From positions 156,366,001 through 156,430,000 of the forward strand of contig NC_086097.1 in the NCBI RefSeq assembly GCF_963921235.1: a DNA stretch of 64,000 nucleotides. Direction: 5' to 3'. A model generated the notes under the pieces. The model ran no database searches. It saw nothing but the letters and a program-made list of their open reading frames with translations, and was not told the DNA's origin. Made by a program: the position numbers and the translations under genes. Shown here piece by piece: positions 2,116 through 60,347 of this stretch (positions are counted from its first letter, which is position 1; every line of letters begins with the position of its first letter). Source of the DNA: Mobula hypostoma. Lineage: Eukaryota.

Positions 2116-3555
2116 ATTTTCCATTCAAGGGCATTGATATTTCCATACCAGGCTGTGATACTGCCAGTCAATATACTCTCCACTTCACATCTATCGAAGA
2201 TTTATGTGTAATGCTGAACCTTCACGAATTCCTAAGGAAGTAGAGGTACTGCCATTCTTTCATTGTAATTGCACTTATTTGCTGGGCTCAAGTCAGGTCC
2301 TCCAAAACAATAACACCGAGGAATTTGAAGTTGCTGACTCTCTCCACATCGGATACCCCGCTGAGGGCTTGCTCATTGGCCTCAAGTTTCCTCCACTGCA
2401 TGTCTATAGAAGTCTGTCAAAGTATTAGATGTCATGCCAAATCTTTCCAAACTCCTCAGGAAGTAGAGGTACCCCTGCGCTTTCTTCATAATTCCATGAA
2501 CGTGCTGACCCCAGGACAGGTCGTTTGAAATAATACCACAACAGAATTTAAAGATGCTGACCCTCTCCATCTCTGATTCCCTGATGAGGGCTGGCTCATG
2601 GACTTCCAGTTTCCTCCTCCTGAAATCAAAAATCAGCTCCTTGGTCTTGCTGACATTGAGTAAGTGGTTGTTGCTATGCACCACTCAGCCAGATTTTCAA
2701 TCTCCTTCCTATATGCTGGTATGTCACCATCTTTAATTCTGCCTATGATGGTTGTGTCATCAGCAAACTTGAATATGGCATTGGAGCTGTGCTCATAGTC
2801 ATAAGTGTAAAACAAGTAGAGCAGGGGTTATGCATACAGCCTTGTGGTGCACCTGTGCTGATGGAGATTGAGAAGGAGATATTATTGCCAATCTGAAATG
2901 ATTGTAGTCAGCAGGTGAGGAAATTGAGGATCCAATTGCTCAAGGAGATATTGAGGCCAAGATCTTGAAGCTTATTGATTAGCTTTGAGGGACTGATAGC
3001 ATTGAATGCCAAGCCGTGGTAAATAAAAATCATCCTGATGTATTCACCTTTGGTGTCCAGATGTTCCAGAGTTGAGTGAAGTGCCAATGGGAGAACATCT
3101 GCTATCTACAAATTGGAGCAGATTCAAGTTGCTTTGCAGGCAGGAGTTGATAAGTTGCATCACCAACCTCTCAAAACACTTCATTGCTATGCAAGTAAGA
3201 GTTAATGGATGATAGTTATTGAAGCAGGTTTCCACGTTTTCCTTGGGCACTAGTTTAATTGAAGTAGGTGGGTATCTCAGAATGCTGAAGCAAGAGGTTA
3301 AAGATCTCCATGAACACTCCAGCCAGTTGATCAGCACAGGGTTTTAGTACTTGACCAGGTACCCTTCCTGGCCCAGGTGCTTTTCATGGGCTCACGCTCC
3401 TGAAGGTTGCTCGCACGTTGGGCCTAGAGACTGAAATCACAAGATCATTGGTTGCCTGGGAGTTTCTGATGGTACCTTCATGTTTTGATGGTCAGATCAG
3501 GCATAGAAGGCATTAAACTCATCTGGAAGTAAAGCCCTAGTGTCACCAATTAACT
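2115..3555 (-). mobile_element. Rex1/Babar-like LINE, RT region, frameshifted
   Basis: Minus-strand ORFs give IFKFADDTTIIG (RT catalytic motif), LNVSKTKELIFDFRR and YHPLTLTCIAMKCFERLV. Confidence 0.85.
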
Positions 3556-7857: not shown

Positions 7858-8897
7858 CATAGAAACATAGAAAATAGGTGCAGGAGTAGGCCATTCGGCC
7901 CTTCGAGCCTGCACCGCCATTTATTATGATCATGGCTGATCATCCAACTCAGAACCCCGCCCCAGCCTTCCCTCCATACCCCCTGACCCCCGTAGCCACA
8001 AGGGTCATATCTAACTCCCTCTTAAATATAGCCAATGAACTGGCCTCAACTGTTTCCTGTGGCAGAGAATTCCACTGATTCACCACTCTCTGTGTGAAGA
8101 AGTTTTTCCTAATCTCGGTCCTAAAAGGCTTCCCCTCTATCCTCAAACTGTGGCCCCTCGTTTTGGACTTCCCCAACATCGGGAACAATCTTCCTGCATC
8201 AAGCCTGTCCAATCCCTTTAGGATCTTATACATTTCAATCAGATCCCCCCTTAATCTTCTAAATTCCAACGAGTACAAGCCCAGTTCATCCAGTCTTTCT
8301 TCATATGAAAGTCCTGCCATCCCAGGAATCAATCTGGTGAACCTTCTTTGTACTCCCTCTATGGCAAGGATGTCTTTCCTCAGATTAGGGGACCAAAACT
8401 GCACACAATACTCCAGGTGTGGTCTTACCAAGGCCTTGTACAACTGCAGTAGTACCTCCCTGCTCCTGTACTCGAATCCTCTCACTATAAATGCCAGCAT
8501 ACCATTCGCCTTTTTCACTGCCTGCTGTACCTGCATGCCCACTTTCAATGACTGGTGTATAATGACACCCAGGTCTCGTTGCACCTCCCCTTTTCCTAAT
8601 CGGCCACCATTCAGATAATAATCTGTTTTCCTATTTTTGCCACCAAAGTGGATAACTTCACATTTATCCACATTAAATTGAATCTGCCATGAATTTGCCC
8701 ACTCACCCAACCTATCCAAGTCACCCTGCATCCTCTTAGCATCCTCCTCACAGCTAACACTGCCACCCAGCTTCGTGTCATCCACAAACTTGGAGATGCT
8801 GCATTTAATTCCCTCATTCAAGTCATTAATATATATTGTAAACAACTGGGGTCCCAGCACTGAGCCTTGCGGTACCCCGCTAGTCACCGCCTGCCAT
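7858..8897 (-). mobile_element. Young 5'-truncated CR1 LINE
   Basis: Uninterrupted 312-aa ORF (7949-8887) with SGVPQGSVLGP, KFVDDTK, VRPHLEYCVQFWSP, followed by a 3' UTR and a (tttctatg)n tail at 7858-7873. Confidence 0.95.
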
Positions 8898-9212
8898 TTC
8901 TTTCTTGATATCTACATTCTCAGGAAACCTTTCATGCTAGAATATAAACCCATTGGTATGAACAGCAACAGCTTCCTTGAAGTTGCCAGTGAAGGTCAGG
9001 AGGATGTTTAACCCTTGGGGAACATTACATTAATTACCTCTGCCCCTGACACTTCTCTACCTTCCTATAAGAGTCACTTAAGACAGACAGGAAGATTTTT
9101 CCCTCCTTGGAACAATGTGTCACTAAGACTACCTGTACAATTTGAGGCCATGGAAATTATAGTGGGCCTGGGAAGGAAACAGATACTTATTTATTCAGAA
9201 ACAAAAAATCAA

Positions 9213-14239: not shown

Positions 14240-17072
14240 TTAGTCCCACTCCCCCGCCTTCTCACCACAACCTTTGATGCCCTGGCTACTCAGATACATA
14301 TCAATCTCTGCCTTAAATACACCCAATGACTTGGCCTCCACTGCTGCCCATGGCAACAAATTCCATAGATTCACCACCCTCTGACTAAAAACATTTCTTC
14401 GCATTTCTGTTCTGAATGGGCGCCCTTCAATCCTTAAGTCATGCCCTCTCGTACTAGACTCCCCCATCATGGGAAACAACTTTGCCACATCCACTCTGTC
14501 CATGCCTTTCAACATTCGAAATGTTTCTATGAGGTCCCCCCTCATTCTTCTAAACTCCAAGGAATACAGTCCAAGAGCGGACAAACGTTCCTCATATGTT
14601 AACCCTCTCATTCCCGGAAACATTCTAATGAATCTTCTCTGTACCCTCTCCAACATCAGCACATCCTTTCTTAAATAAGGAGACCAAAACTGCCCACAGT
14701 ACTCCAAGCGAGGTCTCACCAGCGCCTTATAGAGCCTCAACATCACATCCCTGCTCCTATACTCTATTCCTCTAGAAATGAATGCCAACATTGCATTCGC
14801 CTTCTTCACCACCGACACAACCTGGAGGTTAACCTCAAACGTATCCTGTACCAGGACTCCCAAGTCCCGTTGCATCTCAGAACTTTGAATTCTTTCCCCA
14901 TTTAAATAATAGTCTGCCCGTTTCTTTCTTCTACCAAAGTGCATAACCATACACTTTCCAACATTGTATTTCATTTGCCACTTCTTTGCCCATTCTTCCA
15001 ATCTATCCAAGTCTCTCTGCAGACTCTCCATTTCCTCAGCACTACCAGCCCATCCACCTATCTTTGTATCATCAGCAAACTTAGCCACAAAGCCATCTAT
15101 TCCATAATCTAAATCATTGATGTACAATGTAAAAAGAAGCGGCCCCAACATGGACCCCTGTGGAACACCACTGGTAACCGGCAGCCAACCAGAATAGGAT
15201 CCCTTTATTCCCACTCTCTGTTTCCTGCCAATCAGCCAATGCTCTATCCACGTATGTACTTTTCCCGTAATTCCATGGGCTCTTAACTTGTTAAGTAGCC
15301 TCATGTGTGGCACCTTGTTAAAGGCCTTCTGAAAATCCAAATATACAACATCCACTGCATCTCCCTTGTCCAGCCTACTTGTAATTTCCTCAATAAATTG
15401 TAATAGGTTTGTCAGGCAGGATTTTCCTTTAAGGAATCCATGCTGAGTTCTGCCTATCTTGTCATATGCCTCCAGGTACTCCATAACCTCATCCTTAACA
15501 ATCGACTCCAACAACTTCCCAACCACCGATGTCAAGCTAACAGGTCTATAATTTCCTTTTTGCTTCCTTGTCCCCTTCTTAAATAGCAGAGTGACATTTG
15601 CAATCTTCCAGTCCTCCGGAACCATGCCAGAATCTATCGACTTTTGAAAGATTATCGCTAATGCCTCCGCAATCTCCACAGCTACTTCCTTCAGAACACG
15701 AGGGTGCATTCCATCTGATCTGGGAGATTTATCTACCTTTAGACTATTCAGATTTTTGAGTTCTTTCTCTGTCGTAATTGTGACTGCGCACACTTCTCTT
15801 CCCTGCCACCATTGAGTGTCCGGTATACTGCTGATGTCTTCCTCAGTGAAGACTGATGCAAAATACTCGTTCAGTTCCTCCTCCATCTCCTTATCTCCCA
15901 TTACAATTTCTCCAGCATCATTTTCTATCGGTCCTGTATCTACTCTCACCTGTCTTTTACTCTTTAAATACTTGAAAAAGCTTTTAGTATCCTCTTCGAT
16001 ATTATTTGCTAGCTTCCTTTCATAGTTAATCTTTCCCCTCTTAATGACCTTCTTAGTTTCCTCTTGTAAGGTTTTAAAAACTTCCCAATCCTTTGTCTTC
16101 CCACTAATTTTTGCTTCCTTGTATGCCCTCTCCTTTGCTTTAACTTTGGGTTTGACTTCTCTTGTCAAACATGTTTGTATCCTTTTTCCATTCGAAAATT
16201 TCTTCTTTTTTTGGAATATATCTGTCTTGCACCTTCCTCATTTCTCGCATAAACTCCAGCCACTGCTGCTCTGCCGTCTTTCTTGCCAGTGTCCCTTTCC
16301 AGTCAGCTTTGGTCAGTTCCTCTCTCATGCCACTGTAATTTCCTTTACTCCAATTGAAATACCGACTATCAGATTTCGGCTTCTCTTTTTCAAATTTCAC
16401 AGTGAACTCAATCATGTTATGATCACTGCCTCCTAAGAGTTCCTTCACCTCAATCTCTCTGATCACCTCACGTTCATTACACAATACCCAATCCAGTACA
16501 GCCGATCCCCTAGTGGGCTCAACAACAAGCTGTTCTAAAAAGCCATCTCGCAGACATTCTACAAATTCTCTCTCTTGAGATCCAGTGCCGACCTGCTTTT
16601 CCCAATCCACTCGCATGTTAAAATCCCCCACAATTATCATAACACTGCCCTTCTGACAAGCCTTTTCTATTTCCTGTTGTAATTTGTAGTCCACATCACT
16701 GCAGCTGTTTGGAGGCTTATAAATAACTGCCATCAGGGTCCTTTTACCCCTGTGATTTCTTAGCTCAACCCATAAAGATTCTGCACCTACCGATCCTATA
16801 TCACCTCTTTCTAATGATTTAATATCATTTCTTACCAATAAAGCAATGCCTCCCCCTCTGCCTACCTACCTATCCTTCCGATACACCATGTATCCTTGGA
16901 CATTCAGCTCCCAGAGACATGCATCCTTTAGCCACATCTTAGTGATGGCCACAATATCATACCTGCCAATCTGTAGCTGTACGACAAGATCATCCACCTT
17001 ATTCCTTATGCTGCGTGCATTTAAGTATAACACCTTAAGACCAGTGTTTGGTACTTTTTGCTTTGATTTCAC
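14240..17072 (-). pseudogene. CR1 ORF2 (AP endonuclease plus reverse transcriptase), disrupted
   Basis: Endonuclease motifs YLNARS, GDFN, LDWVL and SDHN. RT motifs NYRPVSLTS, YLDFQKAF, GVPQGS and FADD. In-frame stop at 16866-16868 and a frameshift near 16170-16215. The RT part is open for 642 aa. Confidence 0.93.
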
Positions 17073-17211
17073 TGCAACTCATCCCAATGGCTACAAATTT
17101 GCCCCATCACCTGCCTGTCTTTCCTGACATCTTTACTGCTCACTATCTTAGATTTATTTCTGTTTTCCCCTTCCTTCGCTCTGTCATTCCAGTTCCCATC
17201 CCCCTGCCAAA

Positions 17212-18121
17212 TTAGTTTAAACCCTCCCTAACAGCTCTATTAAACTTTCCCGCCAGGATACTGGTCCCCTTCAGGTTCAGGTGTAATCTGTCCATTTTGA
17301 ACTGGTCATACTTCCCCCAGAGGAGATCCTAATTATCCAAGAATCTGAAGTCTTGCCCCCTGCACTAGTTTCTCAGCCATGCATTCATCTGCCTGATACT
17401 ACCATTCTTGCCCTCACTAGCACATGGCACAGGTAGTAATCCCAAGATTACTACCCTGGAGGTCCTGCTTCTCAGCCTCCTTCCTAACTCCCAGAAATCT
17501 CTCTTCAGGACCTCCTCCTTTGTCCTATCTATGTCATTGGTACCAACATGTACCAAGACAACTGGCTGCTCACCCTCCCCCTTCAGAATATTCTGGACCC
17601 GATCCAAGACATCCTGTACCCTGGCACCTGGGAGGCAACACACCATGCGGGTATCTCTATCAGACTCACAGAATCTTCTGTCCGTTCCTTTGACTATGGA
17701 ATCCCCTATGACTACCGCATTCCTCTTCTCCCTCTTTCCCTCCTGTACAACAGCACCAGGCTCAGTGCCAGAGACCCGGTCACCGTGGGCGTCCCCTGTC
17801 AGGTCATCCCCCTCAACAACATCTAGAACAAGATATTTATTGCTGAGGAGGACAGCCACAGGTGTGCTCTCCACTATCTGGGCATTTCTCTTCCATCTCT
17901 TGACCGTGACCCAGTTTTCTAACCCCTGTAGCTCCTGTCTATCACCTCTTCACTTTCCCTGATAAGCAGTAGGTCATCAAGCTGCAGCTCCAGATCCCTA
18001 CACGGTCTCTGAGGAGCTGCATCTCAGTGCACCTGGTGCCGATATGGCCATCAGGGAGGCTGGAAGTCTCCCAGGATTCCCACATCTGACACCCTGAACA
18101 AAGCACTAACCCTGCAGGCAT
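17212..18121 (-). pseudogene. CR1 ORF1 (zinc finger/coiled coil plus SGNH/GDSL esterase domain), disrupted
   Basis: ATG at 18121 gives MPAGLVLCSGCQMWE...HIGTRC. Esterase blocks are VVIGDSIV, VHVGTND and DRLH. Premature TAG at 17365 and indels near 17900-18000. Confidence 0.88.
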
Positions 18122-25475: not shown

Positions 25476-26519
25476 TTATTATGTAGAAATATACATGGCT
25501 AATTTACAGCTCAGAAATGGGAAACTTTCGCAACTGCTCTCTGACTCTGTGAGAACCTCCATTTTACTGAACTTGTCTACATTTTCTTTCTCCCTCATTC
25601 ACTCATTCAAATTTACCCCTGAAAACTTTATGCTATACTGTATCTCTTAGCTCTTTTCAGTATTCACTGATGTTCACTTATATTTAGATGGTGAACTGTC
25701 GGATTCCCAATCTTAACCTTCATTCTTCTGCTTATTAATAATTTATTTAGTTTACAGAGCATGGTTGGTAACCGTGGGGCAGTTTTCCATATTTATTACA
25801 CCTAGTAATGTAGTAAAATGGCCCACACACTCTTTATAGATGCTTTGTATTTTCCTTTTCAATTTTAAATAAAAAGAGTTGATCAACTGTAAATACAGTT
25901 CATTGTTAATGACAGGTTGCTATAATTATTACTTCCTCTCTGAACGTTCAATGGAATAAAGCCAATGAATGTGCTGAAGTTGAGGGAAAAACACATGTAG
26001 CTCATTAATGTAGATGGTTACTCTGATTAGTCTCATGGTTACCATGAACCACAGCACAACCCTGACTCTACCTCAGCAATGGAACACTGCAGACCACCCC
26101 TTGCACTAGCATGGACGTCACTGACTGTGTCATTTTTGCACTAACTTCTTGTTTTTGCAGTCCTTCCCCTCTCTCTTCACTGTCTTATAATTTATGTATA
26201 AATTATCTTCTGGATGTTGTCTCGATCTAAGTGTTTGTGGTGCTGTTGCAGCCAAATCATTCATTACACTCATAACTTCACCATACTTGTGAAGATGACA
26301 ATATACTTGACTTCACTGTTTCTTGCTACTTTCAATACAAGTGGCCTACATGAATTATCATTGGAAAGGATGATAGGATCTTCAAGAAGCTTCAGAAATA
26401 TAAAAATGGGTTTGAAAATTGGTCCTCCGATGGCTTAGAAATAGTATAGGAAGAAGTGGGACTTCAGAGTCAGAATGAGAATCAAAGTCAGGTTTGTTAT
26501 TACTGACATGCATCCTGCG

Positions 26520-33991: not shown

Positions 33992-36900
33992 AATCACACA
34001 GGAACTCAGCAGGCCAGCCAGTATCTATGGAAAAGAGTAAACAGTTGATGTTTCTGGACAAGACCCTTCATCCGGACTGGGGAAAATAATAGGAAGCCAG
34101 AGGATGAAGTGAGGGTAGGGGAGGAAGAAATACAGGTGATGGGTAAAACTGGGAGGGAGAAGGAGTGAAGTAAAAAGCTAGGAAGTTAATTGGTGAAAAA
34201 GATCAAGATCTGGAGAAGGGGGAATATGATAGGAGAGGACAGAATGCCATGGAAGAAAGGGAAGGGGAAGGAGCACCAGAGGGAGCTGATGGGCAGGTAA
34301 GGAGATAAAGAGAGAGATGGAAATGGTAATGGGGAATGGTGAAGATAGCTGTAAGATTCAATGTGTTTATAAAAGACATCAGTGGATAAGCTGTCTCGAG
34401 AGATAGATACAGAGAGATCAAGAAAGGGGAGGAAGATGTTGGAAATGGACCGGGTAAATTCAAGGGCAGGGTGGATGTTGAGGCAAAGTTGATAAAGTCG
34501 ATGAGTTCTGCATGGGTGCAGGAAGCACCACCAATGCAGTTGTTAATGTAGTGAGGAAAAAGACCCTATTTTCCCTTCCCCACCACTACCTTGCAATCAC
34601 GTGTCTCTGAAGTTCCACCACCAGCTCTTGGGTCCTCGGAGACTCTATCTTCCTCTCACCCCACTTTTCCTGAACACCCCAACCCTTCCCTCTCCTCTGA
34701 CACTACCAATCCCCATCCCCTCTCTGATCCCAGCTCTTAACTGTGCCAGGTCTTTAGCATTTCTTCTTCAGCTACTCAGTGGATAGAGGCTCAGGTGGCC
34801 CTGATTTGAGGCAGAACGTTCTGTCCACAGTAACGGCCTTACCTTTGTCCCCCTGCTATGATGCTGAGCTCTTCTTCCACCACCTCCATCTCCAAGCCTA
34901 CTTCTTAGACAAGGACTGTCCAGCTTGCACCAATGACCATCTCTCCCATCTTCAACACTCCTCCTCTATTTGGACACCCCACTCTGGTCTTCTGCCTGCT
35001 CTGGATCTTTTCATTGTTAGCTGCTGATGAAACATCACCCTCTTGACTTCACCCCTCCTCTCTCCAATTCCAACCTCACTCCTTCCAAATGCACTGTTCT
35101 CCACTCTCTCCACACTAATCCTACCTCACCATCAAACCCGCAGATAAGGGAGTTGCTGTAGAAGTCTGTAGGACTGATCTCTGCTTTGTTGAGGCCAGGC
35201 GACAACTGTCAGACACCTCCTCTTACTTACCCCTCAAGTAGGACCCCACCAAGGAACACTAGGCCATTAACTCCCACACAATCACTTACCTTATTACCTC
35301 CTGGGATCTCCCATACACAGCTACCAATCTCATAGTTTTCTCACCCCACACCTCCTGTTTCTACCTCCTACCCATTGTTTCTGCTTGTTCCTGCCCCACT
35401 AAATTAATATATGCACATCTCGACTCATTTTTATCCCCCTGGTTCAGTCCCTTCCTACCTACATCCGTGGTACTTCACATGCTCTTGATCTTTCGAGTAC
35501 CCTGGCCCCGATCATTTTATTTTAACAGTGGATGTCCAGTACCTATACACCTCTATTCCCCACCAGGAAGACCTCAAAGCTTTCTGGTTTTTCTGGACAC
35601 CAGACCCAACAATTCCCTTCCACCACGATTCTCCTCTGTCTGGTGGGACTCATCCTCAATGTCAAAAACTCCTCCCACTTCCTTCAAACAAAAGGTGTAG
35701 CCATGGGTACCCGTATGGGTCCCAGCTATGCCTACCTTTTTGTCAGCTATGTGGAACAGTCTATGTTCCAAACCTACCCTGGTGTCCGCCATGTACTACA
35801 CTACATCGACGACTGCATTGATGCTGCTTCCTGCACCCATGCAGATCTCATCACTTTATCAACTTTGCCATCAACTTCCACCCTGTCCTCAAATTTACCT
35901 GGACCATTTCTGACACCTGCCTCCCCTTTCTCAATCTCTCTGTCTCCATCTCTGGAGAAAGCTTATTACTGATGTCTTTTATAAACGCACTGAGTCTCAC
36001 AGCTAACAAGTCTATACCTCTTCCCAGCCTGCTTCTTGTAAATATGCCGTACTCTTCTCTCAATTTCTCCTTTTCCACCTCAACTGCTCTCAAGATGAGG
36101 CTTTTCAATCCAGAACTAAGATGTCCTTCTTCTTCAAAGAAAGGAGCTTCCCTTCTTCAACCATCAACACTGCCCTCAACCACATCTCTTCCATTTCACG
36201 CACGTCTGCTCTTACCCCATCCTCCCGCCACCAGTCCAGAGATAAGGTTCCTCTTGTCCTCACCTATCATGCCACCAGCCTCCACATCCAACACATAATT
36301 CTCCATAGCTTTGGCCATCTCCAACAGGATCCCACTACCAAGCACATCCTTCCCTCTGCCCCACTTTCTTCCTTCCCTATGCAACTCCCTTGTCCATTCG
36401 TCCCTCCCCACTGCTTTCCCTCCTGGCACTTATCCTTGCAACCGAAAGAAGTGTTTCACTTGCCCCTACACCTTCTCCCTCACTAGCATTCATGGCCCCA
36501 AACAGTCCTTCCAGGTGAAGCGACACTTTTTCTGTGAGTCTTTTGGGGTTACCTACTTTATCCAGTGTTTCTGGTACAGCCTCCTATATATCATGAGACC
36601 CAACATAGATTGGGAGAGTGCTTTGCCAAGCACCTACACTTCACCTGCCAGAGAAATGTGGGATCTCCAAGTGGCCATCCATTTTAATTCCACTTCTTAT
36701 TTCCATTCCAACATATCAGTCCGTGGCCTCCTATACTGCCGCAATGAAGCCACACTCAGGTTGGAGGAGCAACACCTTATATTCCGTTTGGGTTGCCTCC
36801 AACCTGATTGCAAGAACATTGATTTGTCGAACATCCAATAATGGCTGCCCCCACCTTCTTTTTCACCATTGCACTTTCCCATTTCCCTCTCTCACCTTAT

Positions 36901-37471
36901 CTCCCTACCTGCCCATCACCTCCTTTTGGTGCTGCTTTCCCTTCCCTTTTTTCCATGGCCTCTTCCTCTCCTATCAGATTCCCCCTCCTCCAACTCTTGA
37001 TCTTTTTCACCAATCAACTTCCTAGCTCTTTACTTCACTCCTCCTCCTCCAGGTTTCACCTATCACTTTGTGTTTCTTCCTCCTCTTCCTCCACCTTCTT
37101 ATTCTGACTTTCCACCTTTTTTTTCCAGTCCTGCCATAACTTATATTCAAAAGAGCCCTTGCCACAACTGTAACACACCTTGTTTGGCCTGGCTGGTTTC
37201 TGTTTAGATGCTGTTCATGCTCACTTTCTTCCTGACTACAACTCAGTTGGATTTCTGTCTCTAGTTTCCATTGAAACAACAATTTCAGTTGCTCTTTGGA
37301 ATATAAGTTGTGTTTCAGTTTGGACCAGGGTCTAATTTCATTGATGAAGGGTCTTGGCCTCAAATATTCACTGTTTACTCTTTTCCACAGATGCTGCCTG
37401 GCCTGCTGAGTTCCTCCAGCATTTTGTCTGTGTTGCTTGGATTTCCAGCATCTGCAGATTTTGTCCTGTTT
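33992..37471 (+). mobile_element. Penelope-like retroelement (Neptune-like), long copy with inverted 5' arm
   Basis: Sense body ~34600-37471 has RT motifs MDVQYLYTSIPH, QTKGVAMGTRMGPSYA and YIDDC, a Cys linker CNRKKCFTCPY, and a degenerate GIY-YIG. Antisense arm at 33992-34560. TSD ctgtttatag (33982-33991 and 37472-37481). Confidence 0.9.
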
Positions 37472-41869: not shown

Positions 41870-42105
41870 AGCTATATTCCCATCAACTTCACCCCCACTT
41901 CTTATCTATACATTAGGGGAAAGTTAAATTGTTTAATTAACTTAGAAAACCACGTCTTCAAGAATGTGGGAGGAAAGAGGAGTATCAGGACAAACCCTAA
42001 ATGATCATAGTATTGTGAGAAAACACCTTGCAGTCTCACGAGAGGACAAGACTGAACCTGGACTGCCGGTGTTGTGAAGCAGCAACTCTACCAGCTGGGC
42101 TATTA
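41870..42105 (-). mobile_element. Degenerate V-SINE/HE1-like SINE
   Basis: ttaattaacttag...cgtcttcaagaatgtgggaggaaa...gaacctggactgccggtgttgtgaagcagc. Confidence 0.6.
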
Positions 42106-42590
42106 TTCTGTCCTTATCCAACTTTTCAAATCTGTGAATGTAATTCCTCATTATGTAAAATTGATTTGTTTTCCTGGCCAAACAGCTGCTGTAATTTGGA
42201 TTAATCTCAAAACCAGAATGCCTTTATGACAATGTGTTCTTCCCATTTACAAACCATTCAGGTGCACATCAAATGGTCCACTTAACCACACTTGCAGTCC
42301 CTGCATTAATGGAGATTTAAATTCGGAACAATATAATGTACCAATGTGAACAAGGCCTTTAATCTCACTGTGATTCAATGGAACAATGAGGCACAGATTT
42401 TTACTTGATCAGGATATATTCAGCAGCTATATGACCTCACTTGAAATTGTAGCCAAATCTCTATAAGTGCATCTCATTTGGTATATCAACATAAACAACA
42501 GGAATTCTGCAGATGCTGGAAATTCAAGCAACATACATCAAAGTTGCTGGTGAACGCAGCAGGCCAAGCAGCATCTATAGGAAGAGGCGC

Positions 42591-42626
42591 AGTCGACGTT
42601 TCAGGCCGAGACCCTTCGTCAGGACT
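42591..42626 (-). ncRNA. Minimal type I hammerhead ribozyme motif (left arm)
   Basis: Reverse complement reads AGUC-CUGACGA-AGGGUCUCGGCCU-GAAA-CGUC-GACU, identical to the right-arm copy. Confidence 0.8.
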
Positions 42627-44545
42627 AACTGAAGGAAGAGTGAGTTAGGGATTTGAAAGCTGGAGGGGGAGGGGGAGATGCAAAATGATAGGAGAAGACA
42701 GGAGGGGGAGGGATAGAGCCGAGAGCTGGACAGGTGATAGGCAAAAGGGGATACGAGAGGATCATGGGACAGGAGGTCCGGGAAGAAAGACGGGGGGGGG
42801 GTTACCCAGAGGATGGGCAAGAGGTATATTTAGAGGGACAGAGGGAGAAAAAGGAGAGTGAGAGAAAGAATGTGTGCATAAAAATGAGTAACAGATGGGG
42901 TACGAGGGGGAGGTGGGGCCTAGCGGAAGTTAGAGAAGTCAATGTTCATGCCATCAGGTTGGAGGCTACCCAGACGGAATATAAGGTGTTGTTCCTCCAA
43001 CCTGAGTGTGGCTTCATCTTTACAGTAGAGGAGGCCGTGGATAGACATGTCAGAATAGGAATGGGATGTGGAATTAAAATGTGTGGCCACTGGGAGATCC
43101 TGCTTTCTCTGGCGGACAGAGCGTAGATGTTCAGCAAAGCGGTCTCCCAGTCTGCGTCGGGTCTCACCAATATATAAAAGGCCACATCGGGAGCACCGGA
43201 CGCAGTATATCACCCCAGTCGACTCACAGGTGAAGTGATCCCTCACCTGGAAGGACTATTTGGGGCCCTGAATGGTGGTAAGGGAGGAAGTGTAAGGGCA
43301 TGTGTAGCACTTGTTCCGCTTACACGGATAAGTGCCAGGAGGGAGATCAGTGGGGAGGGATGGGGGGGACGAATGGACAAGGGAGTTGTGTAGGGAGCGA
43401 TCCCTGCAGAATGCAGAGAGAGGGGGGGAGGGAAAGATGTGCTTAATGGTGGGATCCCGTTGGAGGTGGCGGAAGTTACGGAGAATAATATGTCGGACCC
43501 AGAGGCTGGTGGGGCGGTAGGTGAGGACCAGGGGAACCCTATTCCTAGTGGGGTGGTGGGAGGATGGAGTGAGAGCAGATGTACGTGAAATGGGGGAGAT
43601 GCGTTTAAGAGCAGAGTTGATAGTGGAGGAAGGGAAGCCCCTTTCTTTAAAAAATGAAGACATCTCCCTCGTCCTAGAATGAAAAGCCTCATCCTGAGAG
43701 CAGATGTGGCGGAGACGGAGGAATTGCGAGAAGGGGATGACATTTTTGCAAGAGACAGAGTGAGAAGAGGAATAGTCCAGATAGCTGTGAGCTATCTACT
43801 ATAAGCCTACTGACTCTCACAGCTATCTCCCTCCTGGCACTTATCCGTGTAAGCGGAACAAGTGCTACACATGCCCTTACACTTCCTCCCTTACCACCAT
43901 TCAGGGCCCCAAACAGTCCTTCCAGGTGAGGCATCACTTCACCTGTGAGTCGACTGGGGTGATATACTGCGTCCGGTGCTCCTGATGTGGCCTTTTATAT
44001 ATTGGTGAGACCCGACGCAGACTGGGAGACCGCTTTGCTGAACATCTACGCTCTGTCCGCCAGAGAAAGCAGGATCTCCGAGTGGCCACACATTTTAATT
44101 CCACATCCCATTCCCATTCTGACATGTCTATCCACGGCCTCCTCTACCGTAAAGATGAAGCCACACTCAGGTTGGAGGAACAACACCTTATATTCCGTCT
44201 GGGTAGCCTCCAACCTGATGGCATGAACATTGACTTCGCTAACTTCCGCTAGGCCCCACCTCCCCCTCGTACCCCATCTGTTACTCATTTTTATGCACAC
44301 ATTCTTTCTCTCACTCTCCTTTTTCTCCCTCTGTTCCTCTGAATATACCTCTTGCCCATCCTCTGGGTCACCCCCCCCCCGTCTTTCTTCCAGGACCTCC
44401 TGTCCCATGATCCTCTCGTATCCCCTTTTGCCTATCACCTGTCCAGCTCTCGGCTCTATCCCTCCCCCTCCTGTCTTCTCCTATCATTTTGCATCTCCCC
44501 CTCCCCCTCCAGCTTTCAAATCCCTTACTCACTCTTCCTTCAGTT

Positions 44546-44581
44546 AGTCCTGACGAAGGGTCTCGGCCTGAAACGTCGACT
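44546..44581 (+). ncRNA. Minimal type I hammerhead ribozyme motif (right arm)
   Basis: Stem I AGUC/GACU, core CUGACGA, short stem II, GAAA, near-absent self-complementary stem III (ACGU). The GUC triplet predicts cleavage after 44577. PLEs are known to carry such motifs. Confidence 0.8.
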
Positions 44582-44689
44582 GCGCCTCTTCCTATAGATG
44601 CTGCTTGACCTGCTGCGTTCACCAGCAACTTTGATGTGTGTTGCTGGTATATCAACATGTTCAATTACAAACAATGGTTTGGTGAAAGG

Positions 44690-45120
44690 TGTTTAAGGGG
44701 TGGTGGGTCAGGTTTGTTTTTTTTTCTTAGACTGAAGGTCTGTGGTCAATTGGGTACGCTGCAATGATTAATGCTGTGTTCTTTGATGTTTGTAGAGGAT
44801 TTTAGGTGAGGGGAAAAGATTTAGAGGAAGGGTGGGTTTTTCACACAGAGGCTGATGGGCATATGGAATGAACTGCTAGAGAAAGTGCAAAAGATGGGTA
44901 CAATTCCAAATTTTGAAAGACATTTAGGCAATTTCATGGAATAGAAAGGTTTAGAGCAGAGGTTTCCAACATGGACTCCTTGCTTAAAGGTATTGGTCCA
45001 TGGCATAAAAAAATGTTGGGAAGCCCTGATTTAGAGGAATATGGGGCTAGCTCAGGCAAGCACCTTGATCAGTATGGATGAGTCAGGCCAAAGAGCTTGC
45101 TTCCGTGCTCTGTGCCTCTG
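44690..45120 (+). mobile_element. Old CR1 fragments
   Basis: FFTQRLMGIWNELLEKV-like translation at ~44838 and a CR1-type 3' UTR. Confidence 0.65.
44957..45028. mobile_element. 72-bp hAT (Charlie-type) MITE
   Basis: Imperfect TIRs cagaggtttccaac / gttgggaagccctg and an 8-bp TSD gtttagag / atttagag. Partial relatives at ~27604-27658 and 50829-50890. Confidence 0.75.
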
Positions 45121-58727: not shown

Positions 58728-60347
58728 CAGTGGTATGCAAATGTTTGGGCACCCATGGTCAAGATTTCTGTTACTATGAATCATTATGTGAGTAGAAGAT
58801 GAACTGATCTCCAAAAGTCATAAAGTTAAAGATGAAACATTCTTTTCAACATTTTAAGCAAGATTAGTGTATTATTTTTGTTTTGTGCAATTTTAGAGTG
58901 AAAAAAAGGAAAGGAGCACCATGCAAAAATTTGGGCATGCCAAGAGATTTCAGCTCTCAGATAACTTTTACTAAGGTCTCAGACCTTAATTAGCTTGTTA
59001 GGGCTATGTCTTGCTCATAATCATTGTTAGGAAAGGCCAGGAGATGCAAATTTCAAAGCTTTATAAATACCCTGACTCCTCAAACTTTGTCCCTCAAACA
59101 ATCAGCAGCCATGGGCTCCTCTAAGCAGCTGCCTAGCACTCTGAAAATTAAAATAAATGATGCCCACAAAGCAGGAGAAGGCTATAAGAAGATAACAAAG
59201 TGTTTTCTGTTAGCCATTTCCTCAGTTCGTAATGTAATTAAGAAATGACAGTTAACAGGAACGGTGGAGGTCAAATTGAGATCTGGAAGACCAAGAAAAC
59301 TTTCCGAGAGAACTTCTCGTAGGATTGCTAGAAAGGCAAATCAAAACCCCCGTTTGACTGCAAAAGACCTTCAGGAAGCTTTAGCAGACTCTGAAGTGGT
59401 GGTGCACTGTTCAACTGTGCAGTGACACCTGCACAACTATGACCTTCATGGAAGAGTCATCAGAAGAAAACCTTTCCTGCATCCTCACCACAAAATTCAG
59501 CATCAGAAGTTTGCAAGGGAACATCTAAACAAGCCTGATGTATTTTGGAAACAAGTCCTGTGGACTGTTGAAATTAAAATAGAACTTCTTGGCCGCAATG
59601 AGCAAAGGTATGTTTGGAGAAGAAAGGGTGCAGAATTTCATGAAAAGAACCCCTCTCCAACTGTTAAGCACGGGGGTGGATCGATCATGCTTTGGGCTTG
59701 TGTAGCAGCCAGTGGCACGGGGAACATTTCACTGTTAGAGGGAAGAATGAATTCAATTAAATACCAGCAAATTCTGGAAGCAAACATCACACCGTCTGTA
59801 AAAAAGCTGAAGATGAAAAGAGGATGGCTTCTACAACAGGATAATGATCCTAAACAAACCTCAAAATCCACAATGGACTACCTCAAGAGACGCAAGCTGA
59901 CAGTTTTGCCATGGCCCTCACAGTCCCCCGACCTAAGCATCATCGAGAATCTGTGGATCGAACTCAAAAGAGCAGTACATCCAAGATGGCCCAAGAATCT
60001 CACAGAACTAGAAGCCATTTGCAAGGAAGAATGGGTGAAAATCCCCCAAACAAGAATTGAAAGACTCTTAGCTGGCTACAGAAAGTGTTTACACACTGTG
60101 ATACTTGTCAAAGGGTGCGTTACTAAATATTGACCATGCAGGGTGCCCAAACTTTTGCTTCGGGCCCTTTTCCTTTTTTTGTTATTTTGAAACTGTCAAA
60201 GATAGAAATAAAGAAGTAGTCTTGCTTAAAATATTAAAGAAACGTGTCATCTTTAACTTTATGCCTTTTGGAAATCAGGTCATCTTTTACTCACTTAGCT
60301 ATTCACGGTAACAGAAATTTTGACCGGGGTGCCCAAGCGTTTGCATG
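58728..60347 (+). mobile_element. Tc1 DNA transposon, IR/DR type, full span
   Basis: TA|CAGTGG left end. ~210-bp TIRs (58728-58942 and 60136-60347), each with two copies of a tgcaaa..tttgggca direct repeat. Central transposase. Confidence 0.95.
59111..60133 (+). pseudogene. Tc1 DD34E transposase pseudogene (340 codons, single frame)
   Basis: MGSSKQLP...SGRPRK...RRKP...LWTVE...KHGGGSIMLW...QQDNDPK...WPSQSPDLSIIENLW. TGA stops at 59246 and 59423. The first catalytic Asp reads Val. Confidence 0.93.

Follow-up and report, generated by a model that had tools for sequence, protein, structure and literature searches.

How two copies of one mobile element came to stand head to head inside a single duplicated target site is the question raised by an insertion in the window, i.e., the whole 64,000-nt stretch of Mobula hypostoma DNA that was analyzed. 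The insertion contains two arms (Table 1) that are 820-nt reverse complements of each other with 14 substitutions and no indels; a separate comparison of the inverted arms gave 98% identity over 829 nt. Both arms are enclosed by an exact 14-bp TSD (TGGTATATCAACAT) that has no third occurrence in the 64-kb window, and only the left arm carries 35 additional nt at its outer end.

Structure of the Insertion

An earlier note, based on the sequence, had described the palindromic arms, the one perfect TSD around them and the extra tail of the left arm, all of which are confirmed. The note had also proposed a single integration event, and the search for an empty site agrees with this proposal. In contigs of a related organism (two runs from one sample), window positions 41900–42478 are joined directly to 44645–44999, with a flank divergence of approximately 2%, so that the empty site holds one 14-mer and not the two beforehand that the note had named as the adverse outcome. 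The other concern raised there, that the second arm may be an assembly fold-back artifact, was checked at the outer junctions. Both are spanned with zero mismatches by short-read contigs of the source organism (two runs from one sample, possibly the assembly's own). The insertion is a real and recent event that consists of two 5'-truncated Penelope-like element (PLE) copies, arranged head to head within one 14-bp duplication. The description as a two-arm palindrome stands in that the arms are real, but the 477 nt between them are not a plain spacer. This interval is composed of 444 nt of the left-copy element on the minus strand, 3 filler nt, and an inverted bridge of 34 nt.

Table 1. Features of the head-to-head insertion (window coordinates).
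Feature	Position	Strand	Basis
TSD, left copy, 14 bp	42479..42492	+	Sequence; single copy at empty site
35-nt PLE tail (distal reverse-transcription start), left arm only	42493..42527	-	Sequence and family alignment; tail concept from the accessible part of PMC11167929
Left arm: linker zinc finger, GIY-YIG endonuclease (in-frame stop 43256-43258), 3' UTR/pLTR	42528..43347	-	Sequence; Pfam GIY-YIG E 8.2e-05, above cut-off
Minimal type I hammerhead motif, left arm	42590..42627	-	Sequence
Left-copy continuation into C-terminal part of RT, ending at family position 2249	43348..43791	-	Family alignment
3-nt filler; with the next 3 nt, a putative 6-nt snap-back copy of the left-copy end	43792..43794	.	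Sequence
34-nt bridge, family positions 2228-2261	43795..43828	+	Family alignment
Right arm, family position 2691 to pLTR end, no tail; in-frame stop at 43983	43825..44644	+	Sequence
Minimal type I hammerhead motif, right arm; predicted cut after 44577	44545..44582	+	Sequence
TSD, right copy	44645..44658	+	Sequence; empty site

Family Assignment and Age

Both arms encode the end of a PLE protein, with a linker finger and a GIY-YIG endonuclease that are followed by the 3' repeat with its hammerhead. The linker finger (CKRNKCYTC, in both arms) fits the CX2-5CxxC motif given for Neptune and Nematis in the accessible part of PMC8557442. Two further motifs from the same part were also found, namely a CCHH finger between GIY and YIG (VIYCVRCSRCGLLYIG plus two later histidines, in the window) and a DKG motif (ADKGG, in family copy L049). 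The open RT-EN frames of L049 are 743 and 786 aa long, and the 786-aa frame has RVT_1 (E 2e-4) followed by GIY-YIG (E 1e-3), both under the Pfam cut-off. The arrangement that defines EN+ PLEs, i.e., RT and then a C-terminal GIY-YIG in one frame, is therefore provided by L049, and the window arm passes the GIY-YIG cut-off. The layout of such elements (pLTR from partial tandems, tail, inverted 5'-truncated copy, and TSD) was likewise observed, with tails, arms and TSDs in 62 pairs and a tandem unit of 3510 nt that was read in locus L105. Penelope/Poseidon elements are characterized by the lack of a linker zinc finger, which is present here. These motifs point to an EN+ PLE of the Neptune/Nematis type rather than Penelope/Poseidon, the label being given because of the linker zinc-finger motif alone.

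When compared with the majority sequence of 29 family copies, the left and right arms deviate at 6 and 8 of 820 sites, respectively, which accounts for the 14 differences between them. This low divergence, together with a separate stop codon in each arm, indicates that the insertion is young and dead; the earlier identification as a young Penelope-like insertion is supported. The possibility that the arm differences mark two source elements was considered and rejected, as 13 of the 14 are private or nearly so among the 29 copies. The remaining one, at 44638, is a family dimorphism.

Head-to-Head Pairs in the Genome

For canonical EN+ PLE units, the accessible parts of PMC8557442 and PMC3846280 (the latter for Pen2a_Av) describe a neighboring copy that is inverted and 5'-truncated, a single TSD, and, in some cases, a tail of 30–40 bp. 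The view that inverted repeats and a tail of about 35 nt are known PLE features agrees with both sources. As far as those parts go, the window insertion resembles canonical units in its head-to-head copies, tail at one end, single TSD, short junction palindrome and pLTR hammerhead, but differs in having neither an upstream direct pLTR nor a full ORF. The TSD of 14 bp also differs from the 8–10 bp of the rotifer cases in these texts. The three-piece seam, with a bridge at the end of the partner arm, was not found among the canonical EN+ units described there.

Such pairs are numerous in this genome. A 28-base pattern from the 3' end has 60,720 exact matches, and the neighbors within 3 kb of the first 100 matches comprised 10 head-to-head, 0 tail-to-tail and 4 tandem arrangements (one of the 10, L091, proved to be two separate events joined). 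Among long copies taken in genome order, 29 of 87, or about a third, were scored as head to head, including one small adjacent pair. Inverted arms were found in 8 of 20 other long loci, with whole structures of up to 5.7 kb (L049). The earlier note had treated the pair as a special structure, which was not upheld; the head-to-head layout is common here and already in print, and the structure is an ordinary one. By extrapolation, thousands of such pairs in the genome would permit a large statistical test. The set of 62 pairs used below was obtained after removing L147 (mirror of L146), one L113 chain and one L137 chain, which are not single events.

Several other observations were made among these loci. 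L146 and L147 (G000:C1:52603767 and 52670184) represent one head-to-head insertion found twice, 66 kb apart and mirrored, which suggests an inverted segmental duplication or an assembly duplicate. L048, L049, L032, and L039 are palindromes of 3.3–6.1 kb that have little or no spacer and persist in the assembly. Overall, kilobase-sized palindromes seem to build up in this genome and to be retained. L006 shares the start of the right arm, which had raised the possibility of a fixed breakpoint or of a palindromic subfamily that replicates as such. Both were rejected, as the shared boundary is the edge of the query and most of the 30 loci read from 104 pattern hits are point variants of the native sequence.

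Hammerhead Motifs and Predicted RNA Hairpin

The two hammerhead motifs reported previously are present, one per arm, and they are intact and identical. An Rfam search returned no match at E<=1, and the fold of the hammerhead monomer had a z of 0.18. When read from the sequence, the motifs have the core boxes, a bulged base before helix II, a loopless palindromic helix III, and a short helix I, as do the minimal metazoan PLE hammerheads in the accessible part of PMC4209133. Differences from the latter are that the motifs lie on opposite strands and that helix II is closed by G-U: position 11.1 of the conserved G10.1-C11.1 pair is a U in each arm, as it is in 195 of 200 copies of the family.

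According to the same part of PMC4209133, minimal hammerheads need a tandem partner. Given the opposite strands, one transcript of this locus holds one sense motif and no cis dimer. In the predicted RNA fold, the arms form an 820-bp stem in which every nucleotide of the sense hammerhead (39 of 39) pairs with the opposite arm. Because the sense motif would be fully paired and has no tandem partner, self-cleavage from this locus appears unlikely. For the RNA hairpin that the earlier note had envisaged, the long stem is thus retained as a prediction, whereas the ribozyme within it is predicted to be buried. Read-through transcription into a dsRNA hairpin, siRNA production, ADAR editing, and extrusion of a cruciform are possibilities that reflect the potential of the structure only.

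Proposed Priming of the Two Copies

TSDs of 12–17 bp (mode 13) surround 55 of the 62 pairs. A tail is present on exactly one arm in 60 of the 62, and in 37 of these 60 it is on the shorter arm, which excludes a simple fold-back copy of the long arm. Non-CpG diagnostic comparisons between the arms of pairs were discordant in 38 of 686 cases, compared with 227 expected for independent templates. The two 5' ends are no more than 50 nt apart in 9 of 33 long two-piece pairs, compared with 1.5 expected (0 of 20,000 permutations). Since the 38 discordant comparisons exceed the expectation from later mutations, some pairs, such as L032 (7 of 41 discordant) and L085 (4 of 13), used two templates.

In the window, the arms are concordant at 12 of 13 family sites, at which both carry the major alleles, and 27% of 149 copies are as close to the left arm as its partner is. 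These similarly close copies and the discordant site 44638 (family position 3505) make the case for a single RNA a weak one at this locus. This family position is 5 nt from the proximal start site, and four of five discordant pairs show A on the arm with the tail and G on the arm without it, a split that may come from error at initiation.

The formation of tandem and inverted repeats by PLEs is called undefined in the accessible part of PMC8557442, and the rotifer model in PMC3846280 (section 11, in the accessible text) invokes self-priming. As described in the accessible part of PMC11167929, the Poseidon PLE protein of the green anole cuts and extends both target strands in vitro, initiates at two sites that delimit the tail, and probably acts as a dimer according to prediction. 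The window element shares with this system two neighboring RT start sites that delimit the tail, an AT-rich target, a hammerhead upstream of the start sites and, in the route proposed below, the cutting and extension of both target strands. However, the anole element belongs to Penelope/Poseidon, whereas the window element has the Neptune/Nematis linker zinc finger, and that part of the anole work does not derive inverted insertions from two-strand priming.

Composition of the Seam

The bridge originates from the element stretch just upstream of the left-copy end and is placed inverted before the right arm. It consists of 21 nt that are absent from the left copy and 13 nt that form an inner hairpin with 43779–43791, such that it ends 13 nt inside the end of the left copy (+13). 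The join between bridge and right arm has a 4-nt microhomology (ATCT, 43825–43828). Because the left copy lacks 21 nt of the bridge, it cannot, as it stands, be the bridge template.

An extra BLAST-detected piece was found in seven of the 62 pairs, of which five have bridges and two (L040 and L116) have repeats of an arm's own end. In addition to the window, the bridges end at +4 (L173), +9 (L159), −6 (L032), and +69 (L087) relative to the partner-arm end. Another 87 loci, sampled later and comprising 33 inversion junctions, added one bridge (L236, +9, with a 14-bp TSD), one extra 3' copy (L194), and one look-alike (L198). In all, six bridges were found, each with a TSD, and apart from the window, four of five end within 14 nt of the partner-arm end. 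Among nine multi-piece junctions, which include three that are not bridges (L040, L116, and L194), five lie within 15 nt of the partner-arm end. The binomial probability is 6e-6 at p=0.035 (an upper limit of 3.5% for each case, as estimated from how the 5' ends are spread) and about 1e-4 without the discovery case, for a sample that is small and in which pieces shorter than approximately 30 nt are unassigned. The look-alikes L142 and L198 (+12) have no 3' piece and no TSD.

Jumps at the bridges carry 3–7 nt of microhomology. The L032 bridge has at least 4 of 43 differences from the arm fused to it and matches a variant in other copies, indicating that it was copied from another template and is not a deletion scar. 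In comparison with the left arm of L032, the variants of this bridge form a mosaic. Bridge seams were not found described in the open-access literature searched on PLE mechanism, twin priming, and template switch. The bridge seam is the one addition over the known PLE layout and constitutes a modest mechanistic clue.

Further features of seams were observed. In two independent insertions (L087:1103 and L173:4453), the bridges end at the same family position, 1647, and the partner arms start at 1953–1962; 5' ends in the family also cluster near 1830. These positions are possible RNA stall sites. The head-to-head pair at L103:1876-2263 has 388 nt of non-element DNA at its seam, apparently captured from another repeat.

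Origin of the Insertion

We assign about an even chance to the explanation that both nicked strands were primed on one element RNA, with the second copy jumping to the point at which the first had stopped. The staggered cut, 14 bp apart, is recorded by the TSD and the empty site. The top-strand end would have primed at the distal start site, yielding a left copy that has the tail and reaches family position 2249, and the bottom-strand end at the proximal site 35 nt inside, generating the tail-less right copy. To judge from the bridge, the right copy may have stalled at 2691, re-annealed via ATCT at 2261 beside the left-copy end, and run on to 2228. Microhomology repair with a few templated filler bases would then have joined the two cDNA ends. 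One-sided tails, shared variants, and bridges favor this route, in which both nicks prime on a single RNA and a template jump follows. A point against it is that long strand displacement would be required for one RNA to serve twice as the template over 820 nt. The palindrome itself is a by-product to which no function is assigned.

The proposed route has parallels in L1 twin priming as described in the accessible part of PMC2912911. In both cases, the two ends would prime on one RNA, the cDNAs would be joined at a short microhomology, and an inverted piece lies just upstream of the end of the other cDNA. Internal annealing of the second end is immediate in L1, and no long inverted duplication results. 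In contrast, the second end in the window would first copy the 3' 820 nt and then jump. L1-type products have no duplicated 3' end, whereas both window arms carry the 3' end, and only the bridge resembles an L1 inversion.

A more specific mechanism, in which a PLE protein dimer uses the two start sites of a single RNA to prime both nicks and the second RT, once stalled, re-lands beside the stop of the first, is put forward tentatively and at somewhat less than an even chance. If this is true, bridge seams would be a genomic record of how PLE inverted repeats are built, through a process that combines two-ended 3' priming with twin priming of the L1 kind, and the dimer-priming reading would replace the self-priming model. 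The seam yields a prediction that is testable in existing in vitro systems.

Other explanations differ mainly in how they account for the bridge. Two-ended priming may have been followed by gap filling, during which a nascent strand copied the bridge, snapped back past the partner end, and re-annealed downstream by microhomology. A nucleating stem would require overlaps of the kind observed, which are small and for the most part positive (+4 to +13), the jumps have 3–7 nt of microhomology, and the filler reads as a 6-nt snap-back. Nonetheless, this account leaves L032 unexplained (no overlap and a foreign variant), and four of five jump points are within about 320 nt of the 3' end, like stalled short cDNAs, rather than spread along the stem; it is considered rather unlikely. 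We regard as improbable that the insertion began as a near-symmetric palindrome whose right arm was subsequently shortened by 429 nt when replication slipped into the hairpin loop. Near-symmetric pairs are indeed common (9 of 33), the deletion would have a 4-nt microhomology, the look-alikes L142 and L198 lack the TSD as a later deletion would cause, and PLE deletions at microhomologies are reported in PMC3846280 (section 11, in the accessible text). Slippage is difficult to reconcile with the intact perfect-centre palindromes of 3.3–5.7 kb (L048 and L049) when pairs with 300-nt loops (L087 and L173) carry bridges, and it cannot add the foreign bridge of L032. The landing point expected from a template jump would also result from a gap-filling snap-back or from slippage at a hairpin.

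The remaining two explanations concern the templates. That the arms were copied from two different RNAs and met by chance microhomology would suit the discordant dimorphic site at 44638 and the pairs that clearly have two templates. This is very unlikely in view of the genome-wide concordance and the one-sided tails, and it would leave unexplained the landing of the bridge 13 nt from the partner's end. Least weight of all is given to an assembly fold-back artifact or to the self-priming fold-back suggested for rotifer PLEs, on either a cDNA or an antisense template. The variants common to both arms, the 13-bp palindrome at the junction, and the published self-priming proposal are compatible with such an origin, and independent read support is limited to the outer junctions, not the inner seam. 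Against it are the frequent occurrence of the tail on the shorter of the two arms, the location of both ends at the canonical start sites with an exact TSD, the split of the 14 arm differences into 6 and 8 from the family majority, and the outer junctions and empty site seen in short-read contigs.

Surrounding Window

No host exon was found among 118 stop-free frames of at least 62 aa at 18,000–58,000, a scan that would miss small exons. These are 118 of the 134 listed frames, the other 16 being within an older PLE at 35.2–36.9 kb. Matches among the 118 frames were an RT fragment, ALKBH8_N, and a sub-threshold Pfam match to APOBEC at 26202–26435 (+). The last has no PDB match and is probably due to chance. 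The older PLE relative occupies window positions 34150–37050, is approximately 80% identical, and has its own inverted short arm. Long LINE-like RT frames, which we take to be CR1-like, are located at 14240–17949 (−) and 7949–8911 (−); one is near complete, with an esterase-like frame upstream. A 235-aa fragment at 59426–60133 (+) is presumably derived from a Tc1-like transposase.
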